A stretch of 62,540 bases of DNA, filler included, from Thermodesulfobacteriota bacterium (GTDB lineage: Bacteria; DASVDK01), in NCBI GenBank assembly GCA_036381125.1. It is 4 parts of 4 records of this genome, joined end to end, with 100 filler letters (N's around TTAATTAATTAA, not from the genome) between each part and the next. Parts side by side here need not be neighbours in the genome. Positions count along the whole stretch, not along the records: positions 1 to 21,860 come from DASVDK010000221.1; 3 more parts are not named here. One strand, given 5' to 3'. Below the pieces are notes generated by a model. It was not told where the DNA came from, did no database searches, and saw only the letters and a list, made by a program, of their open reading frames with translations. Of the stretch, positions 6,467 to 12,613 are shown piece by piece (the first letter of the stretch is position 1; the number at the start of each line of letters is the position of its first letter). A program made the translations under genes and the position numbers.

Positions 6467-6850
6467 TCAACGAAGCCGGGCAGATGCGCGTGCGATCGCC
6501 TCGACCTCGGCCACGTCGAAGGGCTTGCGCACGACCGCCGCCGCGCCGAGGGCGCGGCTCTCGCGAAGAATCCCTTCGTCCACCGCCGCCGTGACCATGA
6601 CCACGGGAACCCCGCGGCTCCTGGCGCCGAGGCGGCGCAGGAAGTCGAGCCCGCTCTCGCCCTGGAGCCGGATGTCGAGGAAGACCAGGCTCGGCGCGGT
6701 GCTCTCGAAGAGGCGCAGCGCGGCATCGACGTTCGCGGCGTGCCGGAGATCGAACTCGTCGCCGAGGAGGACGTCGAGCGCCTCCCGGACGCCGCGGTCG
6801 TCCTCGACGATCAGAATGGGGCCCCGCTGCGGGGCGACTGCGGTCACCAT
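6467..6850 (-). CDS. Single-domain response regulator (CheY-like receiver)
   Basis: ILIVEDD...VFLDIRLQGESG...VMVTA...KPF; no output domain; ATG 6850 lies just downstream of a sigma54 promoter. Confidence 0.88.
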   Translation of the reverse strand: MVTAVAPQRGPILIVEDDRGVREALDVLLGDEFDLRHAANVDAALRLFESTAPSLVFLDIRLQGESGLDFLRRLGARSRGVPVVMVTAAVDEGILRESRALGAAAVVRKPFDVAEVEAIARASARLR

Positions 6851-6863
6851 GAGGCCGCGGCTG

Positions 6864-6879
6864 AGCAAGAAGGGTGCCC
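6864..6879 (-). promoter_or_regulatory. sigma54 (-24/-12) promoter of the single-domain receiver gene
   Basis: Minus strand GGGCACCCTTCTTGCT matches GGCAC-N5-TTGCW; nearly identical to the element at 10866-10881. Confidence 0.75.
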
Positions 6880-7018
6880 TCGGGCCCGACCCGGGGAAGT
6901 CCCCGAAGTTCCACGGTCGAGGCTGCAACGTCCGTTACCCGCTGCCTTGCGCCCGGTGCAGCGCGGCGTGCCGACTGCACAGCGCGGTGGGCACCGCCGC
7001 CGGACGCCGCCCGAACCG

Positions 7019-8919: not shown

Positions 8920-10502
8920 GGCCGGTCGAGCCAGACCTTCCGCATCGGCACGTACGGGGCTCCCAGGGCGCTCACCTCGACCCCCCTGACCGACGGCTGG
9001 TAGGCCTGCTCGTACCAGATGTGGAGAATCGGGATGATCGGCACGTCCTCGAGCACCTGCGCCTCGACGCGGCGGTAGATCTCCGCACGGCGCACCGGGT
9101 TCAGCTCGCGCCGGCCCTCGTCGAGGAGCGCGTCGACCTGCGGGTTCGAATAGTGCCAGTAGTTGTACCGGGACTGCGAATGAAAGAGGATGCCGAGGAT
9201 GTTGTCGGGATCCGGCAGGTCGGCGAACCAGGCGTAGCGGAAGAGCGACATGCGGCCCTCGGTGAGGAACCGCTGGAACTGCGGCCAGTCGTCGGCGAAC
9301 CTCGGCTCGGCGGCGAGCCCCAGGGCGTGCGCGGCATCCGCGATCCCGTCGAACTCCGCCCGCTGTGCCTCGGAGCGGACGGCGGACCACATCTCGAAGC
9401 CGCGCACGGCCTCCGGCCCCCCCGCCTCCCCGAGGAGCGCCGCGGCCCGCGCGCGATCGACCCGCGGCACGTCGCGCGCCGGGTTGTAGCCGAGCACGCC
9501 GGGCGGCAGGATCCCCGCGGCGGGCCGGTGCTTGCCCTTCGTCCCCGCCTCGACGACCGCCGCCCGATCGAACGCGAGCAGGAGCGCCATGCGCACCCGC
9601 GGGTCCCTCCACTCCGGCCTGGAGAGGTTGAACCCGTAGAACTGCAGGGCGAGCGTCGGCCGCCGGACGACCGGGAACGTCCCCGACGCGAGCGCCTCGT
9701 CCCGCAGCTCGCTCGGGATGGGCGACTCGTCGAAGTCGCCCTTCCGGAACGCGCGGTAGATGTCCGCGTCGGTGGCCGTCGGCATGATCGCGTAGCGGAT
9801 CCGATCGAGATAGGGCCGGCCCCGGAAGTGGGCGGGGTTGGCTTCGAGGACGATCGCCTTGCCCTCGTCCCACCTGACGATCCTGAAGGGCCCCGTGCCG
9901 ACCGGCGCCCGCTCGAAGGGGACATCCTTCGACTCGACCGCCTCGCGGGGGACGATCTTGGCCTTGTTCGTGGCGAGCAGCGACAGGAACGGGGCGTAGG
10001 GCTCCTCGAGCGTGACCTCGACCCGATTCGGGGTCACGGCCCGCACACCGCGAAGCGTCTCGGTCCTGCCCTGCCGTACGTCCCTGGCGCCGACGATGAG
10101 ATCGAACGTCTCCCCGGCGGTCGACCGCGTCTCGGGCTTGAAGAGGCGCGTCAGCGAGTAGACGACGTCGTCGGCCGTGACGGCGCGGCCCGAGTGGAAG
10201 CGGACGTCCCGCCTGAGGTCGAAGGTGTAGACGCGACCGTCACGCGACACCCGCCAGGAGCGGGCAATGGCCGGGATGATGTTCAGATCGCGGTCGAAGT
10301 CGACCAGCCCGTCGAAGATCTGCTGGATGACGGTCACCGCGTAGTAGTCGGTCGACCGCGCGGGGTCGAGCGTCCGCGGGGAGTAGCGGAGCGGGAACCT
10401 GTAGGTTCCGCCGATTCTGGGCGTAGGATCACCCGCATGGCCGGACGGCGCCCCGACGTGGAGCAGGAGTGCCGTGAGGGCAAGCGCGAGCAACCGCAGC
10501 AT
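8916..10502 (-). CDS. Family-5 (OppA/DppA-like) extracellular solute-binding protein, orphan
   Basis: Signal peptide; TLDPA...QIFDGLV...PAIARSW...YTFDLRRDVRFHSG...TADDVVYS; PVGTGPF; W..DLPDPDN; no permease or ATPase genes adjacent. Confidence 0.93.
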   Translation of the reverse strand: MLRLLALALTALLLHVGAPSGHAGDPTPRIGGTYRFPLRYSPRTLDPARSTDYYAVTVIQQIFDGLVDFDRDLNIIPAIARSWRVSRDGRVYTFDLRRDVRFHSGRAVTADDVVYSLTRLFKPETRSTAGETFDLIVGARDVRQGRTETLRGVRAVTPNRVEVTLEEPYAPFLSLLATNKAKIVPREAVESKDVPFERAPVGTGPFRIVRWDEGKAIVLEANPAHFRGRPYLDRIRYAIMPTATDADIYRAFRKGDFDESPIPSELRDEALASGTFPVVRRPTLALQFYGFNLSRPEWRDPRVRMALLLAFDRAAVVEAGTKGKHRPAAGILPPGVLGYNPARDVPRVDRARAAALLGEAGGPEAVRGFEMWSAVRSEAQRAEFDGIADAAHALGLAAEPRFADDWPQFQRFLTEGRMSLFRYAWFADLPDPDNILGILFHSQSRYNYWHYSNPQVDALLDEGRRELNPVRRAEIYRRVEAQVLEDVPIIPILHIWYEQAYQPSVRGVEVSALGAPYVPMRKVWLDRP

Positions 10503-10578
10503 CGAGATGGCCTCGCTCCCGGTCGGGGGACCCGACCCGTGCGATGGCCGCGCGGGTCGGTTCCCCAGGAGGGCCGCG

Positions 10579-10608
10579 ACGTTACCCGCGTCACGCTCGG
10601 GGTGTCAA
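10579..10608 (-). promoter_or_regulatory. Putative sigma70 promoter for the solute-binding protein gene
   Basis: TTGACA-N18-TAACGT, immediately after the upstream terminator. Confidence 0.6.
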
Positions 10609-10612
10609 GGGC

Positions 10613-10647
10613 AAAAAAAATGACGGCCCCGGGAGAGTGACCGTCAT
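10613..10647 (-). terminator. Rho-independent terminator of the small peptide gene
   Basis: Minus strand ATGACGG...CCGTCAT stem followed by a run of T. Confidence 0.8.
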
Positions 10648-10703
10648 GCTGCAGATGCAGCCAGGAGAACTGGAAGATCAGGCTTGACGAAGCTCGAGGA
10701 AGA

Positions 10704-10805
10704 CTAGACGCCGCCGCCGCCCTCCGCGAGCGCCGGCAGCACGTACGCGGCAACCGTGGCGCCCGTAACGAACAGCGTGACGAGAACTCTGCGCAGACCC
10801 TTCAT
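10704..10805 (-). CDS. Unannotated 33-aa secreted peptide precursor MKGLRRVLVTLFVTGATVAAYVLPALA-EGGGGV
   Basis: GGGGAGG SD upstream of ATG; basic n-region, hydrophobic h-region, Pro then A-L-A signal peptidase site; flanked by its own sigma54 promoter and terminator; below the ORF-track length cutoff. Confidence 0.8.
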   Translation of the reverse strand: MKGLRRVLVTLFVTGATVAAYVLPALAEGGGGV

Positions 10806-10865
10806 CTCTCAACCCTCCCCAGGAAGCCATGCACGTGGAGCAAACCGGAATCGCCCACTGGCCTG

Positions 10866-10881
10866 AGCAAGGAGGGTGCCA
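10866..10881 (-). promoter_or_regulatory. sigma54 (-24/-12) promoter of the peptide gene
   Basis: TGGCACCCTCCTTGCT is a perfect TGGCAC-N5-TTGCW match; predicted TSS ~10855. Confidence 0.85.
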
Positions 10882-10918
10882 CCATTGCCGCGCCGCACCA
10901 TGGCGGGCAGGACGTCCG

Positions 10919-10931
10919 TAAACTATTGTTA
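10919..10931 (-). promoter_or_regulatory. Putative IHF binding site upstream of the sigma54 promoter
   Basis: TAACAATAGTTTA, one mismatch to WATCAA-N4-TTR, inside an isolated AT-rich patch. Confidence 0.55.
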
Positions 10932-11113
10932 TATCTATGGATTCTCCGAGCGGTGCCGAAGGCCGCCCGATGGCCGGGGTGCGAGGTGCCCAGCCGCCCG
11001 TGCAGCCCCCCTCGGCCGGACGCCTGGCCCGTACGCGAATCGCCGCGCCACGCGTGCTCCAGCGCACAACTGCCACGGAAACTGTGCAATGCCCTGTGGA
11101 GTGTGCAGCCGTG

Positions 11114-12613
11114 TCAGCGGAGGACTGGCGGGACCGGAACGGCCGGCGTGTCCTCGTCGTCGGGGTCGGCTTCGCCCGGCCCGAGGGTCCGTCGGTCGGC
11201 CGTCGAGAGCGCCTCGGCGCGGCGGCGGCGGCCGATCTCGCCGAGGTCTTCCCGGATGCCCAGCTCGTCGAGCTTGGCCATGAGGGTATTGCGGTGGATG
11301 CCGAGGATCTGTGCGGCCCGGCTCTGGTTGCCGCCGGTGTCCTCGAGGATGCGCAGGATGTAGCGCCGCTCGAAGCTCTCCCGCGCCTCCTTGAGCGTCC
11401 AGCGCTCGCCGGCGTCGGTTGCCGGCAGCTCGACGGCGCGGTCGAACAGCTCGGCCGGCAGCTCCTTGACGGTGATGAGCTGCTCGCCCGGGGCGAGGAC
11501 GACGAGGCGCTCGACCATGTTCTCGAGCTCGCGGATGTTCCCCGGCCAGGCGTACCGGCAGAGCACGTCCATGGCCTTGGCCGAGAAGCCGGGCACGCGC
11601 TTGCGGAAGCTCCGGGTGAAGCGCCCGAGGAAGTGCTCGGCGAGGAGCGGGATGTCCCCTCGCCGCTCCCTGAGGGGCGGCAGCGAGATCGGCACCACGT
11701 TGAGCCTGAAGTAGAGGTCGCTGCGGAAGAGCCCCCGGCGAACCGCCTCGGCGAGGTCGGTGTTCGTGGCGGACACGATCCGCACGTCCACCGGGATGGT
11801 CCGCGGGCTGCCGACCCGCTGGATCTCGCGCTCCTGCAGGACGCGCAGGAGCTTGGCCTGCAGGCTCATGGGGAGGGTCGCGATCTCGTCCAGGAACAGG
11901 GTGCCGCCGTGCGCGAACTCGAACTTGCCGATCTTGCGCTCGTACGCGCCGGTGAACGCCCCCTTCTCGTGGCCGAAGAACTCGCTCTCCATCAGCTCCT
12001 GCGGGATGGCGGCGCAGTTGACGGCCACGAAGGGCGCCGCCCGGCGCGGGCTCTCGCGGTGGATCGACCGGGCGATCAGCTCCTTGCCCGTCCCGCTCTC
12101 GCCCGTGATGAGCACGCTCGAGGTCGTCTGGGCCACCTTCCGCACGAGGCCGAAGATCTCGAGCATGCGGGGATCGCGCGAGACGATGTCGCCGAAGGTG
12201 CGGCCGGCAAGCTCGCTCCTGAGGAACGCGACCTCCCGCTCGAGGGCCTGCTTGGCGATGATCTTCTCGGACAGGGCGAGGAGGTCGTCCGGCGCGAAGG
12301 GCTTGACCAGGTAGTCGTAGGCCCCGAGCTTCATCGCCGCCACGGCCTTCTCGGCCGTGTTGACCGCCGACACCATCACCACCTCGACCGAGGGGTCGAG
12401 CATCTTGATGTCGGAGAGGACGGCGAGCCCGTCCCGGCCCGGCATGGTGATGTCCAGGAAGACGATGTTGACCGTGACGGTGCGCAGGACCTCGAGGGCG
12501 TCGCGGCCGTTCTCGGCCGAGAAGGTCTGGTAGTGATCCTCGAGCGTCAGCTCGATGGCCTGGCGAACGGCGGGCTCGTCGTCGACGACGAGGACGACGG
12601 GCTTGAGGTCCAT
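11114..12613 (-). CDS. sigma54-dependent response regulator (REC-AAA+-Fis HTH, NtrC/AtoC family)
   Basis: REC (VVDDE...FLDITMPG), GESGTGKE, ESEFFGHEKGAFTGA, FLDEI, WPGNIRELEN, HTH NQSRAAQILGIHRNTL. Confidence 0.96.
   Translation of the reverse strand: MDLKPVVLVVDDEPAVRQAIELTLEDHYQTFSAENGRDALEVLRTVTVNIVFLDITMPGRDGLAVLSDIKMLDPSVEVVMVSAVNTAEKAVAAMKLGAYDYLVKPFAPDDLLALSEKIIAKQALEREVAFLRSELAGRTFGDIVSRDPRMLEIFGLVRKVAQTTSSVLITGESGTGKELIARSIHRESPRRAAPFVAVNCAAIPQELMESEFFGHEKGAFTGAYERKIGKFEFAHGGTLFLDEIATLPMSLQAKLLRVLQEREIQRVGSPRTIPVDVRIVSATNTDLAEAVRRGLFRSDLYFRLNVVPISLPPLRERRGDIPLLAEHFLGRFTRSFRKRVPGFSAKAMDVLCRYAWPGNIRELENMVERLVVLAPGEQLITVKELPAELFDRAVELPATDAGERWTLKEARESFERRYILRILEDTGGNQSRAAQILGIHRNTLMAKLDELGIREDLGEIGRRRRAEALSTADRRTLGPGEADPDDEDTPAVPVPPVLR

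Follow-up and report, generated by a model that had tools for sequence, protein, structure and literature searches.

The subject of this report is a short open reading frame (sORF) of 33 codons carried by a Thermodesulfobacteriota bacterium (GenBank assembly GCA_036381125.1) and studied here within a stretch of 62,540 nucleotides of its DNA, made of four parts joined end to end and referred to below as the window. The sORF is a member of an unnamed gene family whose reality and conservation are evident from comparison of sequences across genomes and metagenomes, and whose members combine a nearly constant leader resembling a Sec signal peptide with a variable tail of a few residues. It lies between a gene for a sigma-54 activator and one for an orphan OppA-like periplasmic binding protein, and the first residue of the tail varies in step with a short motif of that binding protein. 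On balance we lean towards a scheme in which signal peptidase would free the tail, EGGGGV in the window, for sensing by the binding protein and a histidine kinase, closing an autoinducing loop. An earlier note, drawn up from the window's sequence by itself, had proposed that this hidden gene encodes a pheromone precursor directly upstream of a peptide-binding protein; independent comparative evidence now supports that central idea, and the finding is real and not an ordinary one.

A short gene with its own transcription unit

The elements of the unit are as follows, together with a box that lies just past it.

10931..10919, minus strand: IHF-like A+T-rich site TAACAATAGTTTA, one mismatch to WATCAANNNNTTR, between the activator sites and the promoter
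10881..10866, minus strand: sigma-54 (-24/-12) promoter TGGCACCCTCCTTGCT, TGGCAC-N5-TTGCT, predicted transcription start near 10855
10820..10813, minus strand: Shine-Dalgarno sequence GGGGAGGG, 7 nt 5' of the ATG; relatives have GGAGG at the same place
10805..10704, minus strand: sORF, 33 codons, MKGLRRVLVTLFVTGATVAAYVLPALAEGGGGV, ATG start, TAG stop at 10704..10706
10725..10805, minus strand: leader, codons 1-27, MKGLRRVLVTLFVTGATVAAYVLPALA, signal-peptide-like
10707..10724, minus strand: tail EGGGGV, codons 28-33, the proposed released peptide; family pattern X-GGG(G)-X
10647..10621, minus strand: hairpin of the intrinsic terminator, followed by T8 at 10620..10613
10603..10608, minus strand: TTGACA, a -35-like box directly after the terminator T-run

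A re-reading of the sequence places the open reading frame, the sigma-54 promoter, the Shine-Dalgarno sequence and the terminator exactly where the earlier note had them. The codons of the sORF follow the GC1/GC2/GC3 pattern of the window, which has 72.5% G+C, and the exact 33-residue peptide is present once, without a name, in the protein collection that was searched. The promoter has GG at -24 and GC at -12 with the exact spacing of a sigma-54 promoter, and the string TGGCAC-N5-TTGCW occurs just once in the 62,540 bases (none of 100 shuffles gave any). The 61-nt terminator stretch folds at -21.9 kcal/mol (RNAfold; z -2.65), with 4 of 200 shuffles folding as well; a consensus scan of positions 10300-11300 called neither a terminator nor a sigma-70 promoter, the terminator scan allowing loops of 3-8 and the hairpin of the sORF having a longer one. 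The predicted transcript is monocistronic and about 240 nt long. The earlier note's claim of a complete sigma-54-driven monocistronic unit is borne out further by distant relatives of 39-60% G+C, in which the arrangement of promoter, open reading frame and terminator recurs. The IHF-like site that it had reported is present and its position suits a sigma-54 promoter, but the site itself is weak when taken alone, since the window holds two such sites with one mismatch where 0.96 would be expected, and at least as many are found in 26 of 100 shuffles. A TTGACA or TTGAAA box after the T-run is also found in several relatives (at about 3140 in locus L001 and about 5840 in locus L002), and may mean that the binding protein-kinase operon has a sigma-70 promoter of its own, packed against the terminator.

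The same control elements accompany the family as a whole. Upstream sequence of 130 nt is available for 82 sORFs, and in 61 of these a strict GG-N10-GC element precedes the start codon by 43-88 nt; inspection by eye added ten with TTGCG at -12 and one other variant, while six are second tandem copies that lack a promoter of their own, two have TTGA at -12 and two have none. The two with TTGA in place of TTGC (L088, TTGGCACCCATCTTGAA; L101, TTGGCACTCATCTTGAT) may have weakened or altered promoters. A hairpin precedes a T-run in 74 of 76 relatives. Two or three tandem sORFs stand behind one sigma-54 promoter in L060, L061, L070, L082, L105 and L023/L026 (genome G394).

A conserved family with constant gene order

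In reference genomes, the nearest binding-protein loci (46% identity, 42-52% G+C) keep the order activator, sORF, binding protein, kinase, and the sORFs of the two nearest are MKKIAIELLIVAATVAAYVLPVLADGGGW and MKKIAIELVIIALSVMAYVLPVLAEGSGY. A profile of these two peptides and that of the window gave matches in 11 of 401 sampled Thermodesulfobacteriota genomes, ten of them true, with an activator gene upstream and a binding-protein gene downstream wherever the contig permits; the eleventh (L025) was rejected as the signal peptide of an unrelated 258-residue protein that has no such neighbours. When a 12-sequence profile was run against 1.84 billion proteins, 70 representative clusters were retrieved at E<=0.001, 68 of them short; nearly all members of the short clusters end a few residues past the profile match, and every named member examined is a 'hypothetical protein'. 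A metagenome scan with the 12-row alignment, which demanded Y[VA]LP[VA]LAxGG, yielded 111 relatives and 80 retained loci, with a binding-protein gene downstream in 67 of the 69 loci having at least 500 nt of room and an activator gene upstream in 54 of 65 with room. The peptide itself has no Pfam match, a best NCBIfam E-value of 0.5 and no Rfam family at E<=1, and no published description of the cassette was found in the full-text literature, in a search that covered neither supplements nor subscription journals. Conservation of the open reading frame, on which the earlier note had staked its reading, is found in the form of a family with constant synteny, and the orthologs that it had called for have been located, with a constant cleavage motif and variable tails.

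Two comparisons bear on translation. Loci L015 and L018 differ by 14 synonymous and 3 non-synonymous codon changes (4/2/14 nucleotide differences at first, second and third codon positions); because differences between relatives are mostly synonymous and at third positions, selection acts on the protein, and the open reading frame is evidently translated. Additionally, the amino-acid sequence is conserved from 39% to 72.5% G+C.

A few loci depart from the general picture. A sub-clade comprising L103, L106 and L110 (also L074 and L083) has leaders of the MKKLM.QLFVIGV... type. Upstream of the sORF, L103 and L110 show a divergent REC-domain match in place of the activator and L106 shows no activator match; the sigma-54 promoter is kept, and the activator must be encoded elsewhere. 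Peptides P0008, P0053 and P0057 run past the usual stop into unrelated sequence (42-63 residues) and may be frameshifted, read-through or mis-assembled copies. Two binding-protein homologs, P0098 and P0103, are 64% and 54% identical to that of the window; the longest contig listed with each has one and the same length (27,320), and one organism may carry two cassettes.

Leader and tail

To describe the anatomy of the family, 167 peptides were pooled, 162 of which could be split at P-x-x-A into leader and tail, giving 138 unique peptides and 95 different tails. Positions are counted from the predicted cleavage site, with -1 as the last residue of the leader and +1 as the first of the tail. The window leader consists of a basic n-region, a hydrophobic core and a c-region with Pro at -4 and Ala at -3 and -1 (MKGLRR / VLVTLFVTGATVAAYVL / PALA), as in the n/h/c organization of Sec signal peptides. 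Throughout the family, the stretch from -7 to -1 (Y-V-L-P-V-L-A) has the lowest entropy; Ala at -1 and Pro at -4 are present in all 138 unique peptides, as the splitting rule demanded of both positions, and -3 is V, A or L in 135. The tail begins with the most variable position of all (3.39 bits and 16 different residues at +1, E in 35 and D in 26 of 138), continues with Gly at +2 to +4 and ends on a varying residue (P 39, W 24, Y 14, others). Its length is 5 (49), 6 (71) or 7 (13) residues in 133 of the 138, and whole precursors measure 29-35 residues. The peptide sets found by profile display the same leader and tail pattern as the pooled set. The earlier note's view of the 27-residue leader as a signal peptide is strengthened by this comparative evidence of a conserved P-x-L-A motif, and the design is best described as that of a predicted Sec signal peptide, with a -3/-1 site for cleavage and only a very short product after it.

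Leader and tail also vary in different ways. Seven 24-residue leaders, each found in identical form more than once, carry 2-6 different tails apiece, and in pairs with near-identical leaders the tails differ in 113 of 123 cases. Where copies stand in tandem within one locus, the tail is identical in six of six loci, although 0-9 of the 24 leader sites have changed between the copies. In evolutionary rate the leader is close to the activator and is outpaced by the binding protein: where activators are 89.9% identical, identity is 92.9% for the leader and 73.3% for the binding protein.

Several other identities for the peptide were considered and set aside. Leaders of low G+C (KIAIELLIV) recall the N-terminus of type IV pilins; there is no Gly at -1, the protein ends at 29-33 residues, and the Glu is replaced by Q or T in other clades, the window included. 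A lipobox could fit only the members with Cys at +1 (11 of 138) and is no feature of the family. Nor is a maturase conserved nearby, as a precursor of a ribosomally synthesized and post-translationally modified peptide or of a cofactor would lead one to expect.

The binding protein and its match to the tail

The protein encoded downstream of the sORF belongs to the SBP_bac_5 family (253.8 bits against a gathering cut-off of 32.4), and its nearest relatives in the Protein Data Bank (PDB) are peptide ABC binding proteins (8upi, HbpA, DppA, OppA, MppA). Residues D428, W425 and R422 of the window protein align with Asp419, Trp416 and Arg413 of OppA, and W425 and D428 are invariant in 70 sequences. 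According to PMC5736914, Asp419 of OppA hydrogen-bonds the N-terminal amine of the bound peptide, and Gram-negative proteins of the OppA type bind peptides of 2-5 residues. No ABC-transporter component was found by Pfam among the cassette genes and flanking open reading frames of the window and of loci L001, L002 and L033, and the protein scores far below the cut-offs of the NCBIfam transporter equivalogs; given that a permease and ATPase partner is missing, we regard it as OppA-like in binding and do not file it as a transporter component.

The tail and this protein co-vary. In 56 paired sequences, binding-protein residues 179-181 follow the residue at +1: KGA goes with D, NKF with E, NHF or ISS with Q, SDG with R, FNS with G, and KSS with D or E, the window having NKA with E. 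From the motif, +1 is correctly predicted in 42 of 46 rows, the other four being D versus E within KSS, and none of 10,000 shuffles did as well. On a tree built without residues 125-185, +1 needs a minimum of 18 changes and the motif a minimum of 16, and Lys179 agrees in five of five phylogenetically independent D/E pairs (p 0.0625, the minimum for five pairs). The columns most associated with +1 all fall within residues 128-181. The D versus non-D distinction needs one change on a tree of residues 125-185, six on a tree of residues 30-124 and eight on a tree of residues 186-520; as residues 30-124 separate the sORF from the block and yet need six changes, simple linkage does not explain the association. 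Furthermore, in pairs whose activators are about 84% identical, binding-protein identity is 78.6% where the tail is the same (n=10) and 67.4% where it differs (n=38). An association of the last tail residue with binding-protein columns follows phylogeny and was not used as evidence.

Residues 179-181 directly follow the position aligned to His161 of OppA, for which a docking and molecular-dynamics study gives a hydrogen bond to the side chain of residue 1 of the ligand (PMC6305025). Residue +1 thus behaves as would residue 1 of a free peptide ligand, an interpretation that implies cleavage after L-A. The co-variation, together with the different variation of leader and tail, upholds the earlier note's assignment of the short tail as the part that matches the adjacent peptide-binding protein. 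Its suggestion that the N-terminal Glu might cyclize to pyroglutamate is disfavored as a feature of the system, with E at +1 in only 35 of 138 peptides and the Asp that docks a free amine retained. Tails vary between lineages, are fixed within a genome and track the receptor, as pherotypes do, with the exception of a 'GGGGP' clade discussed below. As lineages differ in the first and last residues of the tail, and the binding protein matches these, the family would fall into 'pherotypes'.

The two-component cassette and its probable activator sites

The gene order around the sORF was read from GC3 periodicity and Pfam, and all genes of the neighborhood lie on the minus strand. The 611-bp spacer between the activator and binding-protein genes holds the sORF.

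14822-12624, minus strand: 7TM-GAF histidine kinase, at the start of the cassette order; overlaps the start of the activator open reading frame by 26 nt
12649-11114, minus strand: NtrC/AtoC-type response regulator, REC-AAA+-HTH_8 with an intact GAFTGA, the sigma-54 activator
11090..11107, no strand assigned: activator site 1, 18-bp palindrome TGC[AC]C-N8-G[GT]GCA, exact match
11071..11088, no strand assigned: activator site repeated with one mismatch, 1 nt away from site 1
10987..11004, no strand assigned: activator site 2, exact palindrome match
10502-8916, minus strand: orphan periplasmic binding protein, SBP_bac_5, OppA/DppA-like, 528 residues (Pfam 3.7e-75)
8881-7019, minus strand: sensor histidine kinase, sCache_3_2-HAMP-PAS-HisKA-HATPase_c (Pfam)
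6976..6993, no strand assigned: third exact activator-site match, upstream of the REC-only gene
6864..6879, minus strand: second sigma-54-like element GGGCACCCTTCTTGCT, one mismatch, before the REC-only gene
6850-6467, minus strand: REC-only single-domain response regulator, downstream of the sCache kinase

Beyond the REC-only gene, on its 3' side, follow genes for a cysteine desulfurase and then MnmA. Loci L001, L002 and L033 have a kinase of identical sCache architecture 3' of the binding protein. The 7TM-GAF kinase is absent at that place in L001 and L002, which have a divergent gene with a B3_4 domain there instead; with this additional kinase in the window but in neither of those loci, the window activator may receive two inputs. 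The true start of the activator may be an internal Met. A GAFTGA-bearing activator of the NtrC type in the locus leads one to expect sigma-54 in the organism. Pfam shows the cassette to have no conserved permease, ATPase, peptidase or modifying enzyme across the window and L001, L002 and L033.

The 18-bp palindromes are, going by motif and position, probably the binding sites of the NtrC-type activator. Three exact copies occur in the window against 0.21 expected (1 of 100 shuffles reaches three), and all three stand upstream of the cassette's two sigma-54 elements. Those on the sORF side are 105-240 bp upstream, and the same type of motif stands upstream of the sORF in relatives; L032 and L033 also have tandem palindromes with a 1-nt spacer. 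That tandem pattern is unique within genomes G149 and G394 and absent from G346, which has a 2-nt spacer. In genome G001 the exact palindrome occurs only at three cassette sites, so that the regulon of the activator looks local, consisting of the peptide gene and the REC-only output gene; two further palindromes in that genome, each with one mismatch, were dismissed as chance, as both lie inside long open reading frames with no sigma-54 element within 2 kb. The REC-only gene is probably a second target of the activator and an output branch of the system. The REC genes of L001 and L002 are likewise preceded by a sigma-54 element (promoter at 6961 in L001 and 9525 in L002), in L001 with a palindrome at 6847. 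These single sites and sigma-54 elements before REC-only genes led us to drop a reading in which the sORF is the sole target. In the window, the -12 element of the REC gene ends 13 nt 5' of the ATG at 6850, so that its mRNA would be nearly leaderless.

A proposed circuit

We propose the following sequence of events. The NtrC-type activator would bind the 18-bp palindromes, possibly with the help of IHF, and fire the sigma-54 promoter of the sORF, and the mRNA of about 240 nt would be translated into a 33-residue pre-peptide. This pre-peptide would be inserted in the membrane post-translationally and cut by signal peptidase I after P-A-L-A, freeing the hexapeptide EGGGGV into the periplasm, from which it could leave, and to which it could return, through porins. 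The orphan OppA-like protein would bind EGGGGV, the N-terminal amine docking on Asp428 and the side chain of residue 1 being read by block 125-185. The liganded binding protein would then modulate the adjacent sCache kinase, which would set the phosphorylation of the activator and so provide positive feedback on the peptide gene; the activator would probably also fire the REC-only gene as an output branch. For the activation and translation steps we draw on conserved sequence anatomy, for cleavage, release and binding on the co-variation, and for the kinase-activator feedback and the REC output on gene order and domain types; cleavage, export, binding, the sign of regulation and cell-to-cell use are the elements that we infer.

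A number of observations weigh against this circuit. The first group concerns the sampling and the statistics. The metagenome subset was selected by motif, so that conservation of the demanded positions there arises by construction, and many metagenome loci may be near-duplicates from one population. The independent-pairs test rests on five pairs only (p 0.0625), and the trees, made from 60-95 columns by a quick method, are noisy. Co-inheritance of linked alleles by recombination may also have played a part. Additionally, in the 10-row 'GGGGP' clade (L031, L033, L059, L070, L078, L081, L083, L099, L106, L111), the motif is MYQAK or MYQAA in 7 of 10 rows whatever residue stands at +1 (A, C, F, H, R, S or V there, and A/C/D/E/F/H/R/S/V over the clade); since the motif is kept while +1 varies, the rule is not universal, and specificity, if any, must be read elsewhere in that clade. 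The second group concerns the peptide. Generic signal peptides are usually less conserved than this leader, which may therefore have a role of its own. A peptide of 29-33 residues is finished before it leaves the ribosome, so that export would have to be post-translational, and the glycine-rich tail carries little information.

Four other explanations were weighed. The one that survives best, although we regard it as unlikely, holds that the sORF encodes an uncleaved small membrane protein, N-terminus in and C-terminus out with a 6-residue periplasmic tip, which feeds back on the adjacent kinase in the manner of MgrB on PhoQ, while the binding protein responds to a different ligand from outside. 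In its favor, the hydrophobic segment comes close to the activator in conservation, the two-component system has this gene as a dedicated target, regulators of kinases are well established among small membrane proteins, and SBP_bac_5 proteins can bind non-peptide ligands (agrocinopine- and heme-binding PDB entries are among the relatives). Such a protein would not lead one to expect that the most variable positions, in the tail of 5-7 residues, change together with the binding protein but not with the remainder of the locus, that the small residues at -3 and -1 and the Pro at -4 are near-invariant, or that the Asp which docks a free N-terminus is invariant, and the hydrophobic core, from the polar E/Q/T position to Pro -4, spans only about 13 residues.

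A second explanation accepts the same evidence for cleavage and binding and differs in the use made of the peptide, which would be a private, autocrine ligand or competitor within the periplasm that sets gain, timing or bistability, with an environmental peptide as the main input to the sensor and no signaling of cell density. It gains something from the binding protein being only 37-50% identical to many relatives, some of which have ordinary transporter names. We nevertheless think it quite improbable, in that lineage-specific tails matched to a receptor are the pattern expected of signaling that separates self from non-self, and tandem amplification has kept the tail identical; the peptide, about 0.5 kDa by our own arithmetic, is also small enough for porins, judging by the size limits given in PMC5736914.

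The third, which the earlier note had offered beside its released hexapeptide, takes the active molecule to be a fragment of the signal peptide itself (e.g. AYVLPALA), in the enterococcal manner, with the Gly-rich tail as a handle for signal peptidase. It is true that Y-V-L-P-V-L-A is the most conserved stretch, that the SBP_bac_5 proteins include the pheromone receptor PrgZ, which is one of the PDB relatives (4faj, 3.8e-24), and that a Gly run is low in information content. However, a constant ligand would explain neither a fast-evolving receptor block that tracks +1 nor tandem copies whose tails stay identical while their leaders drift, and the cassette has no conserved protease of the Eep/RseP type and no conserved exporter; with the tail and not the leader co-varying with the binding protein, we judge this explanation very doubtful indeed.

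Finally, it is scarcely credible that the sigma-54 transcript of about 240 nt acts mainly as a regulatory RNA with an incidental open reading frame, for although this transcript, being short, monocistronic, sigma-54-driven, strongly terminated and downstream of an NtrC-type activator, resembles Qrr and GlmY, which lie downstream of LuxO and GlrR, the substitution pattern is that of a protein, the amino-acid sequence is kept across very different G+C contents, all members have a strong Shine-Dalgarno sequence, and there is no Rfam match at E<=1.

Comparison with known systems

The released-hexapeptide circuit can be set beside several well-studied systems. In the Phr/CSF systems of Bacillus, a Phr precursor is exported by Sec, taken up by Opp and received by Rap, and the pheromones are pentapeptides. 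The cassette resembles these in its small precursor with an N-terminal Sec signal peptide, in an active peptide of 5-6 residues drawn from the C-terminal end, in recognition by an OppA-family (SBP_bac_5) protein and in lineage-specific pairs of peptide and receptor. Unlike Phr, the precursor here has only 29-35 residues, has no pro-region and needs no second processing step. Pfam found no Rap/RNPP receptor or Opp permease near the sORF, whose neighbors are a kinase and an NtrC-type regulator; as the orphan binding protein adjoins a histidine kinase, sensing would be extracytoplasmic. The host here is also diderm, and expression is predicted to depend on sigma-54.

The LuxP-LuxQ-LuxU-LuxO-sigma-54-Qrr circuit of Vibrio likewise partners a periplasmic binding protein with a membrane kinase and uses an NtrC-type sigma-54 activator to drive very short, terminator-ended monocistronic genes. 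In contrast to the cassette, its ligand is AI-2 and not a ribosomal peptide, LuxP belongs to a different family of binding proteins, and its short genes specify small RNAs, whereas the sORF is translated and would itself encode the signal. By analogy, the cassette might be described as Phr/Opp-like at the production end and LuxP-LuxQ-LuxO-sigma-54-like at the sensing end. It is a member of neither group, as it has no Rap/RNPP receptor, no permease and a different class of ligand.

Other likenesses are more limited. The OppA and DppA proteins of Salmonella and Escherichia coli (9rd1, 1b05, 1dpp, 5f1q) belong to the same Pfam family (E-values 1e-39 to 1e-42), and the equivalents of Asp419, Trp416 and Arg413 are kept in the window protein; unlike them, it has no transporter partner, its gene sits within a two-component cassette, and its block 125-185 is allelic and varies with one specific endogenous peptide. 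MgrB, which acts on PhoQ, is also a tiny hydrophobic protein whose gene is targeted by the two-component system that it adjoins; its functional domain in the periplasm is about 20 residues long and it has no cleavage site, as opposed to 5-7 extracytoplasmic residues after a canonical cleavage motif. The enterococcal sex pheromones (PrgZ/TraC) share with the cassette a short peptide, an SBP_bac_5 receptor (PrgZ, 4faj) and the involvement of a signal peptide, but the pheromone there is the imported C-terminal part of a lipoprotein signal peptide, whereas the variable part here comes after the cleavage site. PatS of Anabaena (RGSGR) provides a Gram-negative mini-ORF in which a C-terminal, Gly-containing pentapeptide is the diffusible signal; unlike the peptides described here, PatS lacks a signal peptide and has a cytoplasmic transcription factor as its target, with no binding protein or kinase involved.

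Significance

Peptide quorum sensing with pherotypes is a textbook subject in Gram-positive bacteria and, to our knowledge, almost unknown in double-membraned bacteria. We tentatively suggest, without quite committing ourselves to it, that the family may represent an unnamed and widespread class of autoinducers, made as ribosomal peptides by diderm anaerobes (Thermodesulfobacteriota and relatives), whose precursor would be as small as possible, with nothing beyond a signal peptide and an X-GGG(G)-X tail, whose maturation would require general secretion alone, whose sensing would pass through an orphan OppA-like protein and a kinase, with NtrC/sigma-54 amplification, and whose pherotypes would arise by a joint swap of block 125-185 and peptide residue 1. 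If this is true, a peptide 'pheromone' loop would operate in double-membraned bacteria with a signal that needs no dedicated protease, exporter or modification, and a conserved regulatory gene of 30 codons would have been left unnamed by gene callers and family databases. Both the signal, at 5-7 residues, and its matched receptor would be predictable from the genome in uncultured relatives of sulfate reducers from sediment and soil, and the family would provide a natural set of orthogonal peptide/receptor pairs.

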